Below, piece after piece: positions 764 through 10,087 of a stretch of 21,070 bases of DNA. The stretch covers positions 1-21,070 of the forward strand of contig JAWCLG010000015.1 of assembly GCA_038851075.1 (NCBI GenBank), given 5' to 3'. The notes under the pieces are model-generated. The model saw nothing but the letters and a program-made list of their open reading frames with translations, was not told where the DNA came from and did no database searches. A program made the position numbers and the translations under genes. Numbering within the stretch: the first letter of the stretch is position 1; every line of letters begins with the position of its first letter. Source of the DNA: Candidatus Hadarchaeales archaeon. Lineage in GTDB: Archaea; Hadarchaeota; Hadarchaeia; Hadarchaeales; Hadarchaeaceae.

Positions 764-2362
764 TCAGGCCTTAGACCCTGCAGCGGCCCTCAAGAACGCG
801 TTGAAAACAGGCGCCGGCCTCCCGGGTCTTGATTTGAACTCGGGATGGAATTGCGTGGCAAGGAAAAACGGGTGCTTTGTTATCTCCAGAATTTCCATCC
901 GCCTGCCGTCGAGCGATTTCCCGGAAAACCTCAGCCCGGCCTTCGTGAGCTTGGTTATATACCTCGGATTGACCTCATATCTGTGCCTGTGGCGCTCGTA
1001 GATGCGCTCGCACCCGTATATCTCCATGGCCCTCGAGCCCCTGGCCAAGCGTATCTCGTGCGCTCCGAGCCTCATCGTGCCTCCAAGCTCCTTCACCCTC
1101 TTCTGCTCGGGCAGGATGAAGATCACGGGATGGGGCGTTTTCGGGTCGAGCTCGGTGCTGTTTGCCTGCTTCAGTCCGATGCTTCTGGAGAACTCGACCA
1201 CCGCAAGCTGAAATCCGAAGCACAGCCCGAGGAACGGAACCGGGTGCTGTCTGGCATAGGATATCGCCGCTATCTTACCTTCGCTGCCCCGCTGACCGAA
1301 ACCCCCAGGGACCAGTATTCCATCGTATGCAGAGAGTCTCTCCACCTCTCCGGGGGATTCCTCAAACCTCTCGGCGTCTATCCAGCTGATCTCGACCTTA
1401 CAGCCGTTAGCGGCGGCGGCGTGTTTGAGAGCCTCGTTGATGCTCAGATATGTATCGGAGATGCGGATGTATTTGCCGACCATGGCTATCCTTATGAGTT
1501 TTCTGGCCTTCTCCATTTGCCCGACTACCTTTTCCCACCCTGACAGGTCATCTTTCCTGGCGGTGAGCCTGAGCCTCGCGAGCAGCAGTGAACCCAGTCC
1601 CTCCCGCTCCAGCAGGAGAGGCACCCTGTAGATGTTATCCACATCCGGGGCGCTGATCACGGCATTTTCCGGGACGTTGCAGAAAAGGGATATCTTTCGC
1701 CTCACACCTTCGCTCAAGGGATTCTTGGCCCTGCAGATCACCGCATCCGGCATTATGCCGAGTTCCAAGAGTTCCTTCACGCTGTGCTGCGTTGGCTTGG
1801 TTTTCTGCTCTCCGACCACATCGAGCACAGGCACCAGCGTGACGTGGACAAAAACCACGTTCTCCGGCCCCTCCTCAAGCCTCAGCTGCCTCACGGCCTC
1901 CAGGAAGGGCATGCTCTCTATGTCCCCGACCGTCCCTCCTATCTCAACGAGACAGACCTCTGCCCCGCTCCTCTGCGCAACCTCACGGATGCGGTCCTTG
2001 ATGAGGTCGGTTATGTGGGGGATTATCTGCACCGTTTTGCCCAGGTAGTCCCCCCTCCTCTCCCTTTTTATCACCTCGCCGTATATCTGCCCGGTCGTGA
2101 TGTTGTGATCCTTTGTCAGGTTTATGTCGAGGAAGCGCTCGTAGTGCCCCATGTCAAGGTCTATTTCGCCGCCGTCATCTGTGACAAAAATTTCCCCGTG
2201 CTCGAAAGGATTCATTGTGCCGGCATCGACGTTCAGATAAGGGTCGATTTTGATTGCTGTGACCTTAAAACCACGTGACTGAAGAAGTTTTCCGATCGAG
2301 GCGGTGGTTATCCCCTTTCCCAACCCACTCATCACCCCGCCCGTCACGATGAGGTACTTCAT
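764..2362 (-). CDS. pyrG: CTP synthase (glutamine-hydrolysing)
   Basis: [22 protein letters not shown] start, [24 protein letters not shown], GATase GLCFG and HPEF. The true start is placed at the ATG at 2362, not the ORF-track start at 2533. Confidence 0.97.
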
Positions 2363-2385
2363 GGTAATCACGGCGCGCCTACAAG

Positions 2386-2402
2386 TCTTAAATTTTTCTC
2401 CC
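2386..2402 (-). promoter_or_regulatory. Putative BRE/TATA promoter of pyrG
   Basis: Minus strand reads GGGAGAAAAATTTAAGA about 25 nt upstream of the pyrG ATG, consistent with a leaderless or short-leader transcript. Confidence 0.5.
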
Positions 2403-2551
2403 ACTTTATAAGGACTTAATTCTGCGCCGCCCCGTGTCAGGGAGAGGACCTTAAACCTTTGGTCGCGGAAGTCGCACCGGCAATGGTTCAACAAGTTCTG
2501 ACTACTATTGCTCAGGTAACGCAACCATGACAAGCAAGGTTTTCTATATTG

Positions 2552-3634
2552 CTAAAGGCTGCACAAGCTCCACATCCAGGCCTGTCCTCTCTTTCCCGCA
2601 CGTTTTACCAATCCTTGCTTCTCCAGGATGGGAATGTGGTGGGCTTGGATAGTCGTGCGGGCCTTGCCAAGCGCTGTAGCCAGCTCGTCGTACGTCTTGG
2701 GGCCGGAGGCAAGCTGTTCCAAGATCATCCTTCGCGCCTCCTCGCCGTCAAGGACATTCGTCCTCCTGTAGGCCGAAAATCCCCGTTCGAACTTCTCGCG
2801 CTTCTCAGGATGGAGGGCGTGGATGCTAAGTTCGCGAATTCGTCTAAAATTAGTCAAACCATATATCTGCAAATTCATCCCTCTGATTGAATAGCTGTTC
2901 GCCCTAACTCCAACCAAGTGGAGGGATTGTCTGAGAAAATGGATAAGCTCGTCATCCTTCGAAGAAAAAGTTATGTGGTGCAGAACGCCCGAATTTTTCA
3001 GCATAACGGAGCCCTCAGCCGCGAAAACGCCGCGCAAGAAAGCAACGCTGAATTCCTGATTTTGTAAAATGACATTCTTGGACCTCTGATAAAGGTCGCC
3101 CATAAGTTTTGACAGAATAACGGAATTAAAGTAAGCCTGGGCATATTCTTTCCTGATTCTGGGATCCACGCAGATCTCCGTGAAATTTTGGTGGGGGATT
3201 GACAGCTCATTCGCCCATTTCTTCCTAGCCTCGTTAAGAGAAGATGATGTCGGTACATTAAGGGTAATTTTGAATTTCTCTCTGTTCAATCCAAACCTGT
3301 ATTCAACAAAATTTAAGAAATGCCGGAGCAACGCTGGTTCCGAATTGCCAAAGTATAGGCCCTTACTTTTGCCACCCTCCCCCCGCCAAAGGCCAAGCCC
3401 AACGAAAAACAGGTCATCCAACTCGACAAAACGCTTAAGCCCGATTTCCTTTGAACGATGACCGCAGTGCTCTCCCGAAGGCAAAGTGTAAATCCAGATT
3501 TTATCATTTTCAACCCTTGTAACGATCTCCCTACCCCTGAACTTTTGAGCTCTGATTATCTCCTCCAAATCTACGGATGTATTTCCTTCCACGCTCCCGG
3601 CGTCGCTTTGGTTGGAGGTCCTTTTAATAGACAA
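2552..3634 (-). CDS. Free-standing double-motif LAGLIDADG endonuclease-like protein with C-terminal winged HTH
   Basis: Two LAGLIDADG helices (GLGLWRGEG and FLRGVFAAEG), each followed by typical beta-strands (LYFGNSE; ITFSSKD). C-terminal ILEQLASGPKTYDELATALGKARTTIQAHHIPILEKQGLV is an ArsR-like wHTH. TTG start is uncertain. Confidence 0.85.
   Translation of the reverse strand: MSIKRTSNQSDAGSVEGNTSVDLEEIIRAQKFRGREIVTRVENDKIWIYTLPSGEHCGHRSKEIGLKRFVELDDLFFVGLGLWRGEGGKSKGLYFGNSEPALLRHFLNFVEYRFGLNREKFKITLNVPTSSSLNEARKKWANELSIPHQNFTEICVDPRIRKEYAQAYFNSVILSKLMGDLYQRSKNVILQNQEFSVAFLRGVFAAEGSVMLKNSGVLHHITFSSKDDELIHFLRQSLHLVGVRANSYSIRGMNLQIYGLTNFRRIRELSIHALHPEKREKFERGFSAYRRTNVLDGEEARRMILEQLASGPKTYDELATALGKARTTIQAHHIPILEKQGLVKRAGKRGQAWMWSLCSL
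2565..2583. repeat. Imperfect direct repeat, copy 2 (16/19 identical to 3642-3660)
   Basis: aagctccacatccaggcct versus aagctctacatcgagccct; both read GLDVEL on the minus strand. Confidence 0.5.
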
Positions 3635-3638
3635 ATTT

Positions 3639-4568
3639 TCAAAGCTCTACATCGAGCCCTAACTTTTCACAGAGCTCCTTGTAGCGATTCCTTACGGTGA
3701 CCTCTGTGACCCTAGCGACATCAGCGACATCCCTCTGAGTCCTGCGCTCACCGCAGAGCACGCTCGCTATGTAGATCGCGGCCGCAGCAACCCCCGTCGG
3801 ACCGCGCCCTGAAGTCAGCCCCTTCTTCATGGCTTCCTTCAGGAGCTCCACGGCCTTGGACTGTACCTCGCCGCTGAGCCCCAGCTCTGAGCCGAACCTA
3901 GGTATATAATCAACTGGACTGGTCGGCCTCAGATGTATCAGGAGTTCCCTGGCTATGAACCTGTAGCTGCGGCCTATTTCCTTCTTGCTGACTCTGGAGA
4001 CGTCTGCTATCTCGTCCAGTGTTCTTGGAACCTTGCACTCCCTGCACGCGGCGTACAGCGCCGCAGCCGCCACGCCCTCTATAGACCTGCCGCGTATCAG
4101 GCGCTCCTCAACGGCCTTCCTGTATATCAGCGCGGCCGCCTCCCTCACGTTCCTGGGGAGCGCGAGGTGCGAGGACATCCTGTCTATCTCTGAGAGCGCG
4201 AAGGCAAGGTTTCGCTCGGTTGCGTCAGAGACCCTGATCCTGCGCTGCCATTTCCTCAGCCGGTAGATCTGCGCCCTCTTTTTGGGTGTCAGATCCTTTC
4301 CGTGGGAGTCTCGGTCACGCCAGTCTATCATCGTCGAGAGGCCTTTGTCATGAATGGTCAGCGTCATCGGAGCGCCGACCCTTCCCCTCCTATCGCGCTG
4401 CTCCTGATCGAACGCCCTCCACTCAGGCCCCATGTCCATTATCCTGTCGTGTATGACATAGCCGCACCCGGCGCATACCAGCTCGGCCTTCTCATAATTC
4501 CTGACGAGCTTGTTGCTTCCGCACTCTGGGCACGCCTTCTGCTTTACCGGCTTTTCCTCGTTTTCCGT
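3639..4568 (-). CDS. tfb: Transcription initiation factor IIB (TFB)
   Basis: B-reader [20 protein letters not shown], two cyclin repeats ([19 protein letters not shown]) and [12 protein letters not shown]. The frame stays open upstream of 4439 through the zinc ribbon CPECGS...LVCAGCG. The start is placed at ACG (4568) behind an SD-like GGGGGAGAT (inferred). Confidence 0.95.
3642..3660. repeat. Imperfect direct repeat, copy 1 (last codons of tfb)
   Basis: Encodes the tfb C-terminus GLDVEL; near-copy at 2565-2583. Confidence 0.5.
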
Positions 4569-4804
4569 TCTATCTCCCCCATGAATATTTCGGACCCTAC
4601 GAGCCGCTCCGCGTCACGGGGGGTCAGCCCTGACGCGAGTTTTATCACGATATACGGAGATCCGACAGGCCCGAATATCTCGGATACGTTGCCGATCCTT
4701 TTCTTTTTGCCATCGAAGACCTCCTGGCCGAGCTTGGTGTTCCCGGACGCCCTCGCCACGATACCCCTTCGTGTGGCACGGAGGATCTTTCCTGTCACGG
4801 CCAC
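4544..4804 (-). CDS. gar1: H/ACA RNP component Gar1/Naf1 family
   Basis: [30 protein letters not shown] matches archaeal Gar1, and gar1 upstream of tfb is a familiar archaeal arrangement. GTG at 4804 follows GGAGGT. Confidence 0.88.
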
Positions 4805-4844
4805 CTGCTTACCTCCGAAAAATTTATAAGTCATCTTTAAGCCC

Positions 4845-4858
4845 CTATATAAATCTTG
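4845..4858 (-). promoter_or_regulatory. Putative BRE/TATA promoter of gar1-tfb
   Basis: Minus strand CAAGATTTATATAG about 40 nt upstream of the gar1 GTG. Confidence 0.55.
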
Positions 4859-4952
4859 CGCATGTATTTAAAAGGAGCAGTTTTCGCGCGCCGGCCTCCG
4901 GAACCACCGGCGCTTTTTTAACGGCTTTTGTTTAATGATTGGTGATGGTTGA

Positions 4953-6530: not shown

Positions 6531-7040
6531 CTATCTTATGAGCTCCTCTATTTTCTCCCTTATTCTGTCCATGTCGTCCTCCATGCCGAAATAACTTGCG
6601 AACTTTCTCGAGGTTCTGAGCATTCTCGTGCGCCCGAAAGGTCTTGACTCTATAAAGCCCAGCGCCTGCAGCTGTTTTATATGCTCGTAGACCCTGTTTC
6701 CCCTGAGCTCCGCCAGCTTTGATTGCGTGAGGTTCTGCCTGTAGGCTATCATGGCGAGGGTCTTTAATGCCCCCCTCGATATGCGGGACTTTGGCACGAT
6801 ATCTCCAAGCTTTTCGATGTACTCCTCTCTGAGCTGCAGCCTGTAGGAATCCCTGCCGCACTCCACGATCGAAACCGATCCGCCCCTTCTCTGGTACTCC
6901 GCCCTGAGCTCATCGAGCAGCTTCCTGACGTATGTTTCAGAGGAAGTCTTCACGACATCCATGAGCTCCTTCACGGTCAGCGGATGATCTGCCACGTAGA
7001 GCGCGCCCTCGATCATGGCAATGTCATTCTTCTTTCCCAT
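6531..7040 (-). CDS. scpB: Segregation and condensation protein B (kite subunit)
   Basis: IEGALYV..PL, LKTLAMIAYRQ..TQSKLAELRG, HIKQL...GFI, TSRKFASYFG; directly downstream of scpA. Confidence 0.93.
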   Translation of the reverse strand: MGKKNDIAMIEGALYVADHPLTVKELMDVVKTSSETYVRKLLDELRAEYQRRGGSVSIVECGRDSYRLQLREEYIEKLGDIVPKSRISRGALKTLAMIAYRQNLTQSKLAELRGNRVYEHIKQLQALGFIESRPFGRTRMLRTSRKFASYFGMEDDMDRIREKIEELIR

Positions 7041-7683
7041 TGTTCCCCTCCGTCAGAGAAACTGTGATATCTCCGAATGGCTCCTGCTGCTCGAGCATTA
7101 TCCTCCCCTGCGCGCACAGGAAAAGCAGGAGATAGAGGGTTCTGACCACCGCCCTCTTCGTGCGTTCACCGGCGAGGGACATCAGCGTCGGGACCCCGCC
7201 AGAGGATATGACGTTGATTATCCTTTCATACATCTTCTCTATATGCTCCTCTATCCTGACCTCGTATTCGTCAAGCATCTTCAGTATTCTCTCCATTCCC
7301 CGGCTCCTGACCGTCTTTTTCTCGGGTATCTCCGAGAGCGCCTCATGAAGGGCCCCCAGAAGGTCCGAAAGGGTTATCTTTCGGGGGACGTTCTGGATGA
7401 CCGTGACCTCGCCTATGTCCGGAAAGTCCACGTTTACCAGCTCCATCAGGTCATCTTCGGCCGTCTCCTGCGTTCCGTTGCCGTTGCCAGAAAAGCTGGA
7501 CTTTATTCTCAGGAGTATCGATGCGGAGAGCAGGGCCCTACCCGATGCCCTCAGATCCGGCTCCGGCGCCTCCGTGACCAGCCTCAAGTACAGCGATGTC
7601 AGCTTCTGGAGATCCACGTCCCAAGGGTCTAGCTTGTGCTGTCTCACCAGATCGAGAAGCGTCTGAACCGGCTGCTCTATCAT
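7024..7683 (-). CDS. scpA: Segregation and condensation protein A (kleisin)
   Basis: N-terminal LDPWDVDL...SGRALLSASILLRIKS and C-terminal LLLFLCAQGRIMLEQQEPFGDI. ATG at 7683 follows GGTGA (alternative GTG at 7695). Confidence 0.93.
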   Translation of the reverse strand: MIEQPVQTLLDLVRQHKLDPWDVDLQKLTSLYLRLVTEAPEPDLRASGRALLSASILLRIKSSFSGNGNGTQETAEDDLMELVNVDFPDIGEVTVIQNVPRKITLSDLLGALHEALSEIPEKKTVRSRGMERILKMLDEYEVRIEEHIEKMYERIINVISSGGVPTLMSLAGERTKRAVVRTLYLLLFLCAQGRIMLEQQEPFGDITVSLTEGNNGKEE

Positions 7684-7696
7684 CGCGCTCACCACA

Positions 7697-9937
7697 TCAT
7701 CCTCCTAGCCCCTCCAGGTCAACCGAGAAAACACGCGAGATGTTGTTCTCCATCGCGATCCCGAAGATCCTGTCCGCGGAGGACATTATCGCGTCGTGCA
7801 GCGTTATCACCAGTATCTGCGAGTCCCTGGAGAACTTTTTCAGCATCTCGGCGACCCGCCCCCTGTTCCGGGGGTCGAGGTTGGCATCTATTTCGTCCAG
7901 CACGTAGAACGTTGTCGGGCGGTATCTCTGCAGGGCGAATATCAGCGTGAGCGCCGTTATGGCTTTCTCCCCTCCTGAAAGAGACCCGAGCGATATGAAT
8001 TCCTTTTTCGGAAACTCTGCATAGATTTCAACCCCTCCTTCGAAGGGTGATTCCTGGTTCTGCAGGGTCAGGCGCCCCACGCCCCCGACCGATATCTCGC
8101 TGAATATCTGTCCGAAGTGATATGATATCTCATTGAACGTTTTCATGAAAACCTCTTTTTTCTTCTCGTCTATCCTGCGCATAAAGTCCAGTATTGACTC
8201 CTTCTCTGCAACGAGCTTGTCGTACCTTGCCTTCTCGGAGCCGAACTTTTTTTCCTCCTCCTTGTAGTCCCTTATCGCTCTCTGGTTGACCTCACCGAGC
8301 GACCTCAGCTCCTCCTCCACCTGCTCCGCCCTGTTTTCAAGCGCCTTCAGGTCAGCTTCTTTCGGCGCGCTGGTTCCGGACCTTAATTTTTTGATTTCAG
8401 CTTCGGCTGCTTCGAGTTCGGCCTTCATTGAAGCCCTCTGCAGCTCATGCCCCTGCTTTTCCCCTTCCAGCTCCCGCACCCTCGCGTCGATCTCCCTCTT
8501 TTTTGACTCCAGCGCCTGCAGTTCGGACCTCAGCTTTTCCCTCTCCGACCGCAGCCTGTTTATCGAGGCCCTGACCTTCTTTTCAGCTTCGCTCAGTTTT
8601 TCCTCTTCGGACCTCGCGGCAGTCATCTTTTCCTCGATTTCTGCGATGTTGGTCCGAACCTCGGCAAGGGACCTCGCCAGACCCTCACGCTTTGCCCTCA
8701 TATCCGCGAGAGATGGTGCCTCGCTTCCGTATGTCCGGTAATTCGCGATATATCTCTCCAGCTGGGTGAGAACCGATGATATCTCGTCGAGAACCCCCCT
8801 TGTCTCTTTAAGCGCCTCCATGACCTGTTCCCTGGTTTTTTTGCCCATTGATGACATGAGCTGCGTGAACCTTCCATGGAGCTCTCTGAATTTTGATATG
8901 AGGGAGCCGGTGTCGGGAACCTCCTCCGTTACCTTCTGTATCATGCCGTCAATGTCAGCCAGATCCCGCTCGAGGGAGGAGCGCCTATTTCTGTATGATT
9001 CCAGCAGCCCCTGAAGCGTTGTTATTTTCGAGTGGATAGCGGTCGTGCTCTCTATGGCACTGTCCGATTGCATCTCCTCTATTTTTGAGGAGAGCTCTTC
9101 GATTTTAGACTTGCAGCCGTTCAGCTCCCCTTCAATGCCATCCGCTCTGGCGCGGGCCTTTTTAAGGTCTTCGTGCAGCCTGTCGATCTTCCTCTCCAGC
9201 GCCGAGAGCTTGCCAGCTATTCTGTCCCTCTTGATTACCGCTATCTCACCCCTGAGCTGCTCCAGCTCCGCGGTGAGCGTCCTGTGTTTGATCGCAACCT
9301 CGACCTGAGACTTGAGATTTTCCATTCTGGAGGATATTTCTTTCAGCACCGCTCCGACCGTGCTGAGGTTCGCCTCAACCGCTTTCAGCTCCTCCACCGA
9401 CTTGGCTTTTTTCTCGTCGTACTCCTTGACCCCGGAGAGTTCGTCGATTATCAGCCTCCTCTCCAGCGGCGTCATGTTTATGAACGAGGACACATCCCCC
9501 TGCATCACGAAATTGTAGCCTCCGGGGCTGGACATGACCGGTGCCAGAAGGTCGATTATGTCCTGTCTGGTGACGCGTTTTCCGTTGATCTTGTAGACGC
9601 ATTTTCCATGCCTGTCGATCCATCTTGAGACCGCAACATCCTTGGATCCTACGGGGATTTTTCCGTCTTCGTTGTTGAACACGAGCGTTACCTCGGCAAA
9701 AGGAGCCGGCCGCTGTCCGTTGTCGTTTCCCTTGAAGAGGAGGTCTGACAGTTTTTCGGCCCGCATCGTCTTAGCGCTCAGCTCACCCAGAACAAAACAC
9801 AGCGCGTCAACTATGTTGCTCTTCCCGTTGCCGTTTGGACCCACAACTGCGGTGAGTCCCTTGGAAAGAGGGAGAGTCACCTTGGAGTTCCCAAACGACT
9901 TGAACCCCCTCATTTCTATTTTTGATATGTGTGGCAC
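7697..9937 (-). CDS. smc: Chromosome segregation protein Smc, atypically short (746 aa), no recognisable hinge
   Basis: GFKSF, Walker A GPNGNGKSN, Q-loop VMQGDV, LGEVNQRA, signature LSGGEKA, Walker B/D-loop YVLDEIDANLD; operonic with scpA-scpB. Confidence 0.92.
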   Translation of the reverse strand: MPHISKIEMRGFKSFGNSKVTLPLSKGLTAVVGPNGNGKSNIVDALCFVLGELSAKTMRAEKLSDLLFKGNDNGQRPAPFAEVTLVFNNEDGKIPVGSKDVAVSRWIDRHGKCVYKINGKRVTRQDIIDLLAPVMSSPGGYNFVMQGDVSSFINMTPLERRLIIDELSGVKEYDEKKAKSVEELKAVEANLSTVGAVLKEISSRMENLKSQVEVAIKHRTLTAELEQLRGEIAVIKRDRIAGKLSALERKIDRLHEDLKKARARADGIEGELNGCKSKIEELSSKIEEMQSDSAIESTTAIHSKITTLQGLLESYRNRRSSLERDLADIDGMIQKVTEEVPDTGSLISKFRELHGRFTQLMSSMGKKTREQVMEALKETRGVLDEISSVLTQLERYIANYRTYGSEAPSLADMRAKREGLARSLAEVRTNIAEIEEKMTAARSEEEKLSEAEKKVRASINRLRSEREKLRSELQALESKKREIDARVRELEGEKQGHELQRASMKAELEAAEAEIKKLRSGTSAPKEADLKALENRAEQVEEELRSLGEVNQRAIRDYKEEEKKFGSEKARYDKLVAEKESILDFMRRIDEKKKEVFMKTFNEISYHFGQIFSEISVGGVGRLTLQNQESPFEGGVEIYAEFPKKEFISLGSLSGGEKAITALTLIFALQRYRPTTFYVLDEIDANLDPRNRGRVAEMLKKFSRDSQILVITLHDAIMSSADRIFGIAMENNISRVFSVDLEGLGG

Positions 9938-10087
9938 GTTCTGACCCCAGGATCATCCTCACCCTTGCCTCCCCGGAACGTGCCTCCGGTTTAATTTCTG
10001 TCGGTCTAAACTTAAATTTCTTTCGCGAGAAGAGCCCGGTCATGTACCGGTTAGTTTTATGAGAGCGACGATATATTCTTAGAGACC

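Follow-up and report, generated by a model that had tools for sequence, protein, structure and literature searches.

A Hadarchaeota Smc without a hinge, encoded beside scpA and scpB across an archaeal order

The hinge is treated as a defining domain of SMC proteins and has been described as their constitutive dimer interface, as a site of DNA binding and, more recently, also as a gate. An uncultivated hot-spring order whose Smc has no hinge but whose partner genes have been kept would hence offer a natural test of the hinge's purpose. The locus studied here lies in a 21,070-nt stretch of DNA from a Candidatus Hadarchaeales archaeon (the window) and contains the three ORFs listed in the preliminary description of the sequence, i.e., a short smc, an scpA-like gene and scpB (Table 1). 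It raises the question of whether the encoded protein is a genuine Smc that has lost its hinge, a member of another SMC-like family or the product of a faulty assembly, and, if the first, how its two chains could be held together.

Table 1. Features of the smc-scpA-scpB locus (coordinates are positions in the window)
Feature	Position	Strand	Description
smc	7697-9937	(-)	746 aa; complete ATPase head and all-helical middle
smc, head N-terminal half	9431..9937	(-)	Residues 1-169: GFKSF, Walker A, invariant R59, Q-loop QGD
smc, outgoing coiled-coil helix	8924..9430	(-)	Residues 170-338; helix break 291-292
smc, tip module where the hinge would stand	8711..8923	(-)	Residues 339-409: loop, helix 344-366, 2-residue turn, helix 369-403, loop
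smc, returning coiled-coil helix	8150..8710	(-)	Residues 410-596; joint breaks and LGEVN segment
smc, head C-terminal half and stop codon	7697..8149	(-)	Residues 597-746: LSGGE, Walker B, D-loop, H714
scpA-like kleisin	7024-7695	(-)	223 aa; PF02616 SMC_ScpA 50.7 bits (cut-off 24.6), PF04824 Rad21_Rec8 C-terminal 30.1 bits (cut-off 22.7)
scpB kite	6531-7040	(-)	169 aa; PF04079 121.9 bits, TIGR00281 95.4 bits (cut-off 89.2)

All the canonical head motifs attributed to the 746-aa protein, as well as the LGEVN segment, could be located: GFKSF at residue 11, Walker A (GPNGNGKS) at 33, QGD at 146, LGEVN at 547, LSGGE at 653, Walker B (FYVLDE) at 677 and DEIDANLD at 681. With Walker A, Q-loop, signature motif, Walker B, D-loop and H-loop in place, the protein meets the requirement of an ABC-type head for a prokaryotic Smc. 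The residues of Walker A, the Q-loop, the signature motif and Walker B/D-loop are invariant in 39 short Smc sequences with 34 to 59% identity. The best Foldseek match was the head and joint of Pyrococcus yayanosii Smc (PDB 5xei; E 2.2e-42, TM by target 0.77). Judging from these motifs the ATPase is likely to be active, although there are no data on either its expression or its activity.

The preliminary description predicted no hinge match alongside a strong SMC_N match, and this is what the Pfam searches returned. PF02463 (SMC_N) scored 230.7 bits over residues 4 to 733, and PF06470 (SMC_hinge) gave no match at E≤1 in a six-frame search of the whole genome of origin, including the window contig (88% complete assembly, 29 contigs); the same search matched 11 of 14 control genomes. 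Within the limits of that completeness, no hinge is encoded elsewhere in the genome either. In the AlphaFold2 model (mean pLDDT 81) there is no beta strand between residues 123 and 619, consistent with the predominantly helical character assigned to residues ~170 to 615, where the model predicts only helices; the same method recovered an alpha/beta hinge at residues 522 to 640 of the canonical relative P0072 (1,192 aa). By both profile and predicted structure, the hinge domain expected of a prokaryotic Smc is thus missing. The absence of a hinge, as originally proposed, is upheld by these two lines of evidence, but not by the lack of a GX6GX3GG motif that was also noted. As a regular expression this motif is no usable test, since it fails to detect the genuine hinge in P0125 yet matches the LSGG signature motif in 13 of the 39 short Smcs. 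Sub-threshold hinge matches (E 0.002 to 0.01) occurred in three genomes; the two that were traced are Hel308-type helicases, and the third is in G043.

Could the protein then belong to a family that normally has no hinge, such as Rad50, RecN, ASRP/ClsN or the archaeal SMC5/6-related complex? Like it, Rad50/SbcC and RecN have an ABC head interrupted by a coiled coil and lack an alpha/beta hinge, and there were weak profile matches to ASRP (134.2 bits), Rad50 (PRK03918, 109 bits) and RecN (60.2 bits). However, the corresponding cut-offs of 300 (NF045487), 700 and 407.85 bits (TIGR00634) are all far above these scores, while TIGR02169 (SMC_prok_A) gave 599.7 bits; on its score alone the protein does not qualify as RecN. 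Nor does it carry the CxxC zinc hook at the coiled-coil apex that identifies Rad50/SbcC: as previously noted, the 746-aa sequence contains no CxxC (its only cysteines are at 47, 113 and 275), and a mid-region CxxC was found in none of the 39 short Smc family members. The combination of low NF045487 score and missing CxxC also fails the criteria for ASRP/ClsN/Sph. A separate Rad50 with a CPVC motif is encoded on contig C1, and, in contrast to Rad50/SbcC and RecN, the short Smc has no adjacent Mre11 gene and is accompanied by kleisin and kite genes.

As regards the archaeal SMC5/6-related complex, the accessible part of its description (van Hooff et al., bioRxiv 10.1101/2024.01.07.573240) points to a system that likewise has a three-gene SMC-kleisin-kite operon in archaea. 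Many relatives of the present organism possess a second SMC-like operon with three products: an ATPase of 677 aa, hence also short, a protein of 267 aa that Nse4_C matches faintly, and one of 202 aa. This ATPase reached only 188.9 bits with TIGR02169 and had no SMC_hinge match at E≤0.01, and the kite of the operon was not recognized as ScpB. The short Smc is a different paralogue: its partners are ScpA and ScpB, the kite exceeding the NCBIfam cut-off for the latter, and the SMC5/6-like proteins of the relatives are set apart from the short clade on a long branch of their own (length 2.78). Assignment to any of these normally hinge-less families appears very improbable. With queries from the relatives, the second operon was not found in the genome of origin (88% complete), leaving the short Smc as the only SMC-kleisin system found there.

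The other expected attribute, adjacent partner genes, is fulfilled. Only one nucleotide lies between the stop codon of smc and the start codon of scpA. The scpA and scpB genes share 17 nt, and GGAGGGG is found five bases ahead of the scpB ATG. The claim that both genes directly follow smc is borne out by the family matches in Table 1 and by the gene order in relatives, where 19 of 22 loci have scpA and scpB immediately after smc and the remaining three end within smc. There are no binding data, and that ScpB binds ScpA here is inferred only. ScpA matches bacterial profiles with ~40 middle positions missing, so that ScpB may not be a subunit at all; for six archaeal ScpA/ScpB pairs, one of them from adjacent genes, no binding in vitro is reported in the portion of the source consulted (PMC7055376).

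An assembly collapse, or a deletion private to one metagenome-assembled genome, would also yield a shortened gene, and the 29-contig assembly does contain stray sequence. A second smc copy is present on contig C26 and has 92 to 98% protein identity to the Smc of the same-genus genome G001, to which contig C27 is 96 to 99% identical at the DNA level, whereas the window and a large contig of the genome proper are each only 70 to 75% identical to G001. On account of this disparity, C26 and C27 are most likely stray contigs from a congener, and the C26 gene was discarded as a candidate paralogue. At the locus itself there was no sign of a collapse around the middle of smc: one Logan contig of run X1 covers positions 7373 to 9519 with 0 differences, and neither joints nor loose ends were seen in four runs of one study. 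Since X1 may be the source sample, its contig is not independent support.

Evidence against an artefact also comes from other genomes. A short Smc orthologue (E≤1e-40) was detected in 62 of 65 Hadarchaeota genomes belonging to this order, the exceptions being G016 (88% complete), G026 (75%) and G032 (93%); in 50 genomes it is full-length, colinear and in a single frame, without stops or frameshifts, at 35 to 52% identity. About 75 protein clusters of 703 to 775 aa fully cover the query, none with PF06470, and the smc-scpA-scpB order is kept in five families. No genome of the order (0/65) has an SMC_hinge match above the Pfam cut-off, and no full-length Smc, the finding that would have spoken for a one-off deletion, was seen in close relatives. 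The single genome from elsewhere in the phylum, G041, which belongs to a different family, encodes an Smc of 1,140 aa with a hinge at residues 502 to 613 (91.6 bits). The hinge-less architecture is fixed across the order and is no one-off deletion; an assembly or single-genome origin is barely worth entertaining.

The relation to canonical Smc is apparent from several alignments. The best stretch of the TIGR02169 match aligns residues 3 to 401 with profile positions 1 to 385 of 1,165; the total remains short of the equivalog cut-off (729.4 bits), a deficit that fits the missing profile positions. BLASTP found 36% identity to P0072 in two blocks (residues 1 to 488 on 1 to 469, and 237 to 742 on 660 to 1166), hhalign against canonical Smc gave a probability of 100 with a big central gap in the template, and MAFFT placed gaps after residues 339 and 409. 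The three methods agree on the size of the deletion and differ on its borders, as the alignment of coiled coils is loose. In quick maximum-likelihood trees, with SH-aLRT support only, the short clade is monophyletic (98 to 99) and nested inside canonical archaeal Smc, thereby meeting the phylogenetic criterion for an Smc; it adjoins the G041 Smc with a support of 84 in one tree, a position unresolved in two others. The estimate of ~430 aa lost, given in the preliminary description, is supported, with ~390 to 430 residues missing that correspond to the hinge plus distal arm. That the protein is a canonical-type Smc minus this segment is supported, in so far as sequence comparison can support it. 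It retains the head fold, ATPase motifs, joint, LGEVN segment, ScpA/ScpB genes and tree position of the canonical archaeal Smc-ScpA(B), and differs in lacking a hinge and in having shorter arms and a clade-specific hairpin at the tip.

In the AlphaFold2 model, DSSP assigns helices at residues 170 to 290 and 293 to 338 in the outgoing arm and at 410 to 517, 530 to 546 and 554 to 615 in the returning arm. The long antiparallel coiled coil with a head-proximal joint typical of Smc is therefore predicted to be present, at about half its usual length: ~170 to 197 residues per strand compared to ~340 in canonical archaeal Smc. The arms had been described as balanced; this is correct (169 versus 187 residues), but only if residues 344 to 403 are taken as a separate hairpin, and the original count omitted this ~70-aa tip (residues 339 to 409) altogether. 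Averaging ~178 residues without the tip or ~213 with it, the arm cannot be clearly assigned to either of the modes published for natural arm lengths, 163 and 238 residues. The loops flanking the tip (339 to 343 and 404 to 409) were considered as remnants of a discontinuity in the canonical arm, but the arm breaks in the P0072 control model (287 to 291 and 779 to 782) do not map cleanly to them.

The tip hairpin itself is ~60 aa long, helical and specific to the Hadarchaeota short Smcs. A tip HMM matched 40 of 225 compared proteins at E≤4e-6, without exception short Smcs of the Hadarchaeota type or fragments of such Smcs; against canonical Smc and other hinge-less groups it gave only weak lines (P0230, 10.9 bits; P0124, 7.6 bits), and a common origin of the tips among hinge-less groups could not be demonstrated in this way. 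Hydrophobic a/d positions F350, L353, F357, L360 and L383 each have their majority residue in 85 to 97% of rows, and the second helix has additional hydrophobic g positions at V382 (85%) and V389 (69%), as would be expected if more than two helices pack. A search of the ESM Atlas for structural look-alikes of residues 320 to 430 returned only generic helical matches (TM 0.41 to 0.55) in unnamed clusters.

How would such a protein work? We lean, if only slightly, towards the sole chromosomal Smc having descended from a canonical one by loss of its hinge and distal arm, fixed at the base of the order, and functioning as a shorter Smc-ScpAB closed at the tip. Along with the hinge, both arm helices would have lost their distal part (~390 to 430 residues in all). 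Still present are a complete ATPase head, the joint, an antiparallel coiled coil with ~170 residues per strand (~25 nm) and the ~60-aa hairpin. The presumed complex would be Smc2-ScpA(-ScpB), with inferred arm lengths of ~25 to 30 nm, in which one ScpA would bridge the two Smc chains by contacting one neck through its N-domain and the other cap through its winged helix, with ScpB possibly seated on ScpA. The dimer would be kept together by the ATP-engaged heads, by the kleisin and by lateral contacts between the arms, and the two tip hairpins probably pack as a small bundle of helices and so take over ring closure from the hinge. The whole may then act as a shorter DNA-entrapping, loop-extruding motor on a genome of ~1 Mb. 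For dimerization through the tip, however, there is neither an experiment nor a successful prediction; a two-copy complex prediction of residues 280 to 470 scored 0.14 against a mark of 0.42, which says nothing either way.

The engineered Bacillus subtilis variants provide a precedent, as far as the available portions of the reports go. They involve the same changes, i.e., removal of the hinge, shortening of the arms and replacement of the hinge by another apical element; arm-arm contacts help dimerization of hinge-less Smc (PMC5526789, PMC4785775), and the Rad50 zinc hook, an unrelated dimerization domain, functionally replaces the hinge (PMC5344682). In contrast to those laboratory constructs, of which Mini-Smc retained its hinge, the Hadarchaeota short form is natural, conserved and the sole Smc of the order.

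A less likely but not negligible possibility is that the tips remain unjoined and the arms form an open fork. Only the head end, through the ATP-engaged heads and ScpA, would keep the chains together, although the arms might zip up transiently. DNA would then be clamped on the heads or in the kleisin compartment, the complex acting as a clamp or bridge, or as a motor without a closed Smc compartment. The lack of a hinge, hook or other known dimerization motif agrees with this, as does a tip that has no net positive charge and whose conservation does not stand out from that of the arm (the majority residue has a mean share of 0.48 for residues 341 to 360 and 0.37 to 0.39 for 361 to 400, compared to 0.36 to 0.50 in the rest of the arm). 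Head-proximal B. subtilis Smc is, moreover, sufficient for targeting to loading sites when its heads are locked engaged. Engineered Smc without its hinge does not localize to the chromosome (both from the accessible part of PMC4785775), so that hinge loss is not trivially tolerated, which counts against the tip-closed reading as well as against unjoined tips. Also against unjoined tips, the tip HMM matches fall at the same position in the Hadarchaeota short Smcs, and hydrophobic positions are denser in the tip (15 in 58 residues) than in the flanking arm (9 in 48 and 10 in 61). Finally, a Rad50-like CxxC sits at the center of one other hinge-less archaeal Smc group, suggesting that selection keeps some apical joint.

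It is also conceivable, if improbable, that the protein is a degenerating or repurposed remnant with another role, e.g., in repair, the chromosome being organized by other systems such as the SMC5/6-like operon. That operon is indeed present in many relatives, and genomes in the order are small (~0.6 to 2.2 Mb). A remnant is nevertheless difficult to reconcile with the invariant ATPase motifs, the three-gene order retained in five families, the 50 intact copies and the absence of any other detected SMC-kleisin system from the 88% complete genome of origin.

A natural, order-wide Smc-ScpAB devoid of the hinge and of roughly half of each arm shows that evolution has arrived at an alternative solution, and poses a usable question: what the hinge contributes that DNA entrapment and loop extrusion cannot do without. 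At 746, 223 and 169 aa the complex is compact enough for structural and single-molecule work and, given its origin in a hot-spring metagenome, probably thermostable. More tentatively, and at somewhat less than even chances, this may be a natural hinge-less SMC-kleisin motor in which the tip is a new minimal dimerization module, or in which there is no apical closure; the hinge would have been lost or replaced at least three times in archaeal Smc, and would be exchangeable rather than defining. We found no published description of a hinge-less Hadarchaeota Smc or of the parallel groups in the portions of the literature available, and the supplementary tables of archaeal SMC surveys might list such sequences. 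These parallel groups, among them a natural CxxC-hook Smc, broaden the question to SMC evolution in general: at least two further archaeal Smc groups without a hinge were identified, a DPANN-like clade, in which some forms have a CxxC hook and others no hook, and a single Bathyarchaeia-like protein.

We conclude that the smc-scpA-scpB operon of the window encodes a real, conserved, and new variant of Smc-ScpAB, the dimerisation mode of which is untested. The three ORFs are packed tightly on the minus strand, the scpB ORF overlapping that of scpA by 17 nt and being preceded by GGAGGGG, and lie among housekeeping genes (CTP synthase, TFB, undecaprenyl-diphosphate synthase, nucleoside phosphorylase, and TYW2-type methyltransferase). 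Every Smc head motif listed in the preliminary description was found in the 746-aa protein. In 19 of 22 related loci smc is directly followed by scpA and scpB, and the remaining three end within smc; three locus pairs in this set have identical figures and may each be the same record twice.

Coordinates and profile matches of the window's smc-scpA-scpB genes
Feature	Position	Strand	Profile matches
smc, 746-aa ORF	7697-9937	-	SMC_N 230.7 bits over residues 4-733 (Pfam)
scpA, 223-aa ORF	7024-7695	-	PF02616 50.7 bits; Rad21/Rec8-type C-terminal winged helix 30.1 bits
scpB, 169-aa ORF	6531-7040	-	PF04079 121.9 bits; TIGR00281 95.4 bits (cut-off 89.2)

Of 65 genomes from this order, 62 have a short smc orthologue at E ≤ 1e-40: in 50 the match is full-length, colinear, and in one open frame, spanning 2097 to 2316 nt, while in 12 the gene is split or in fragments at contig ends. 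The search results contained no short smc for G016 (88% complete), G026 (75%), or G032 (93%). In the sequencing runs, a Logan contig of run X1, which may be the source sample, spans window positions 7373-9519, including the middle of smc, with zero differences, and no joints or loose ends were seen in four runs of one hot-spring study. It is the order-wide orthologues, more than these run data, that show that the gene is not an artefact. In one related genome (G009:C6:2200-4472) residues 1-597 and 593-746 of the short Smc are read in neighbouring frames, owing to a frameshift or sequencing error. Public records with the label Candidatus Hodarchaeaceae, which is an Asgard family (L022; proteins P0019 and P0051), carry a Hadarchaeota-type short smc-scpA-scpB at 44 to 51% identity, probably through a mix-up of the names Hodarchaeaceae and Hadarchaeaceae.

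The lack of an alpha/beta hinge was upheld by two approaches. A six-frame search of the whole genome holding the window (1.01 Mb, 29 contigs, 88% complete) with PF06470 gave no matches at E ≤ 1, the controls matching in 11 of 14 genomes. The AlphaFold2 model built with the short-Smc family alignment (mean pLDDT 81) has helices at residues 170-290, 293-338, 344-366, 369-403, 410-517, 530-546, and 554-615 and no strand between them, in keeping with the helical character previously assigned to residues ~170-615. The same method placed an alpha/beta hinge at residues 522-640 of P0072 (1192 aa), the closest canonical Smc, and hence detects a hinge where one exists. Among PDB structures, Foldseek matched the model best to 5xei, the head and joint of Pyrococcus yayanosii Smc (E 2.2e-42, 31% identity).

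Alignments placed the loss at ~390 to 430 residues (earlier figure, ~430), a size that is robust. TIGR02169 aligns as two stretches, the first pairing residues 3-401 with profile positions 1-385 of 1165, for a total of 599.7 bits (below the cut-off of 729.4). BLASTP against P0072 paired residues 1-488 with 1-469 and residues 237-742 with 660-1166, hhalign of the short-family against the canonical alignment gave a single match (probability 100) in which the template has a long gap at its centre, and MAFFT distributed the missing residues as ~54 after 339, ~170 (the hinge) after 409, and ~150 after 444. Unlike its size, the borders of the loss are not robust in these alignments.

The assembly also contains a second, partial, hinge-less smc. 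Codons 1 to 634 of it lie on contig C26 (1-7440), and its product shares 56% identity with the window Smc and 92 to 98% with the Smc of the same-genus genome G001. Another contig, C27 (1-5235), duplicates window 2318-4862 at 75 to 97% DNA identity and is 96 to 99% identical to G001 DNA; the window and one large contig of its own genome are each just 70 to 75% identical to G001. Together, C26 and C27 repeat parts of the window (2318-4862 and 8024-10024) at 72 to 97% DNA identity. Judged by sequence alone, both probably strayed in from a co-occurring congener, although the contamination reported for the assembly is 0.21%; on this reading the genome has one Smc, that of the window. Window 2552-3634 (minus strand), next to TFB (3639-4439, minus strand), encodes a protein of 360 aa that combines a LAGLIDADG_3 domain with an ArsR-type HTH; this fast-evolving, homing-endonuclease-like gene product is 56% identical to its C27 counterpart, versus 98% for the adjoining TFB.

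Across 66 genomes of the phylum, the only hinge match above the cut-off lay inside a 1140-aa Smc of G041, the sole genome of another family. Three sub-threshold matches occurred inside the order; the two that were checked proved to be Hel308-type helicases and were rejected as hinges. Three quick maximum-likelihood trees each united the short Smcs in one clade (SH-aLRT 98-99), placed inside canonical archaeal Smc and beside the G041 Smc and P0072. Sisterhood with the G041 Smc had a support of 84 in one tree, the fork being unresolved in the other two.

The claim that the arms are balanced held only if residues 344-403 are taken as a separate hairpin (turn at 367-368 in the AlphaFold2 model): arm helices 170-338 and 410-596 then balance, the returning arm including ~19 loop residues of the joint. 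In the tip (residues 339-409), which stands where the hinge would be, the a/d pattern of the first helix is regular, F350, L353, F357, and L360 being the majority residue in 85 to 97% of rows, and the second has added hydrophobic g positions (V382, 85%; V389, 69%). Overall, the tip is just slightly better conserved than the remaining arm and has a net charge of ~0. A tip HMM matched 40 of 225 compared proteins at E ≤ 4e-6, all Hadarchaeota short Smcs or fragments of them and at the same position, with nothing convincing outside them. As previously stated, the window Smc has no Rad50 hook and no CxxC; the motif was absent from the middle region in all 39 short-Smc family members.

The conserved ATPase head is intact, the joint is present, and the arms are short and balanced; the kleisin is conserved and has both of its end domains, and the kite gene is conserved too. 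We infer an Smc2-ScpA(-ScpB2) complex held as a dimer by heads, kleisin, and arm contacts, probably also by the two tip hairpins packing into a bundle; it would function as a shortened Smc-ScpAB motor. It is uncertain that ScpB belongs to the complex, since in vitro binding was not seen for six archaeal ScpA/ScpB pairs, according to the available portion of that report (PMC7055376). The leading alternative is a complex whose tips stay open. For Bacillus subtilis Smc, the accessible text of the relevant papers describes arm contacts that aid dimerisation of the hinge-less protein (PMC5526789, PMC4785775) and no chromosome binding after plain hinge deletion (PMC4785775). The evidence cannot decide between open tips and a tip-bundled dimer.

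Many Hadarchaeota relatives have a second three-gene operon, e.g., L043 3937-7337 (G025) and L044 3817-7164 (G023), encoding a ~677-aa SMC-like ATPase (no SMC_hinge match at E ≤ 0.01), a protein of 267 aa that faintly matches Nse4_C, and a ~200-aa protein of no family. As far as the available part of that preprint goes, this operon agrees with the archaeal SMC5/6-related complex described by van Hooff et al. (bioRxiv 10.1101/2024.01.07.573240). We rejected the window operon as such a system: the 677-aa ATPase branches far from the short-Smc clade, and a search with it did not find the second operon in the window's own genome.

Literature searches on hinge-less Smc, on Hadarchaeota with SMC, and on a zinc hook with DPANN found no paper describing this variant, which is also unmentioned in the available parts of the main texts of archaeal SMC surveys, supplements excluded. 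Other hinge-less Smcs do occur. P0089, P0115, P0102, P0098, and P0085 (953 to 1058 aa) lack a hinge and are nested among DPANN-type canonical Smc, with CPLC or CPIC near residue 480; the Rad50_zn_hook match of P0089 (23.3 bits) is just below the cut-off of 24.3. They appear to be naturally occurring equivalents of the engineered zinc-hook Smc, a zinc hook being able to stand in for the hinge in B. subtilis Smc (PMC5344682, available text). Hookless hinge-less proteins without CxxC (P0253, P0153, P0193, and P0263; 779 to 804 aa) group with these ~950-aa hook-bearing proteins in a DPANN-like clade (SH-aLRT 99). P0226 (907 aa), also without hinge or CxxC, falls beside canonical proteins including P0118 (Bathyarchaeum label). 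P0124 (801 aa; L029 3920-6325), from a bacterial metagenome-assembled genome, is hinge-less, without CxxC, and has no scpAB downstream. There are also short-armed Smcs, of 799 to 841 aa, in which the hinge is retained.
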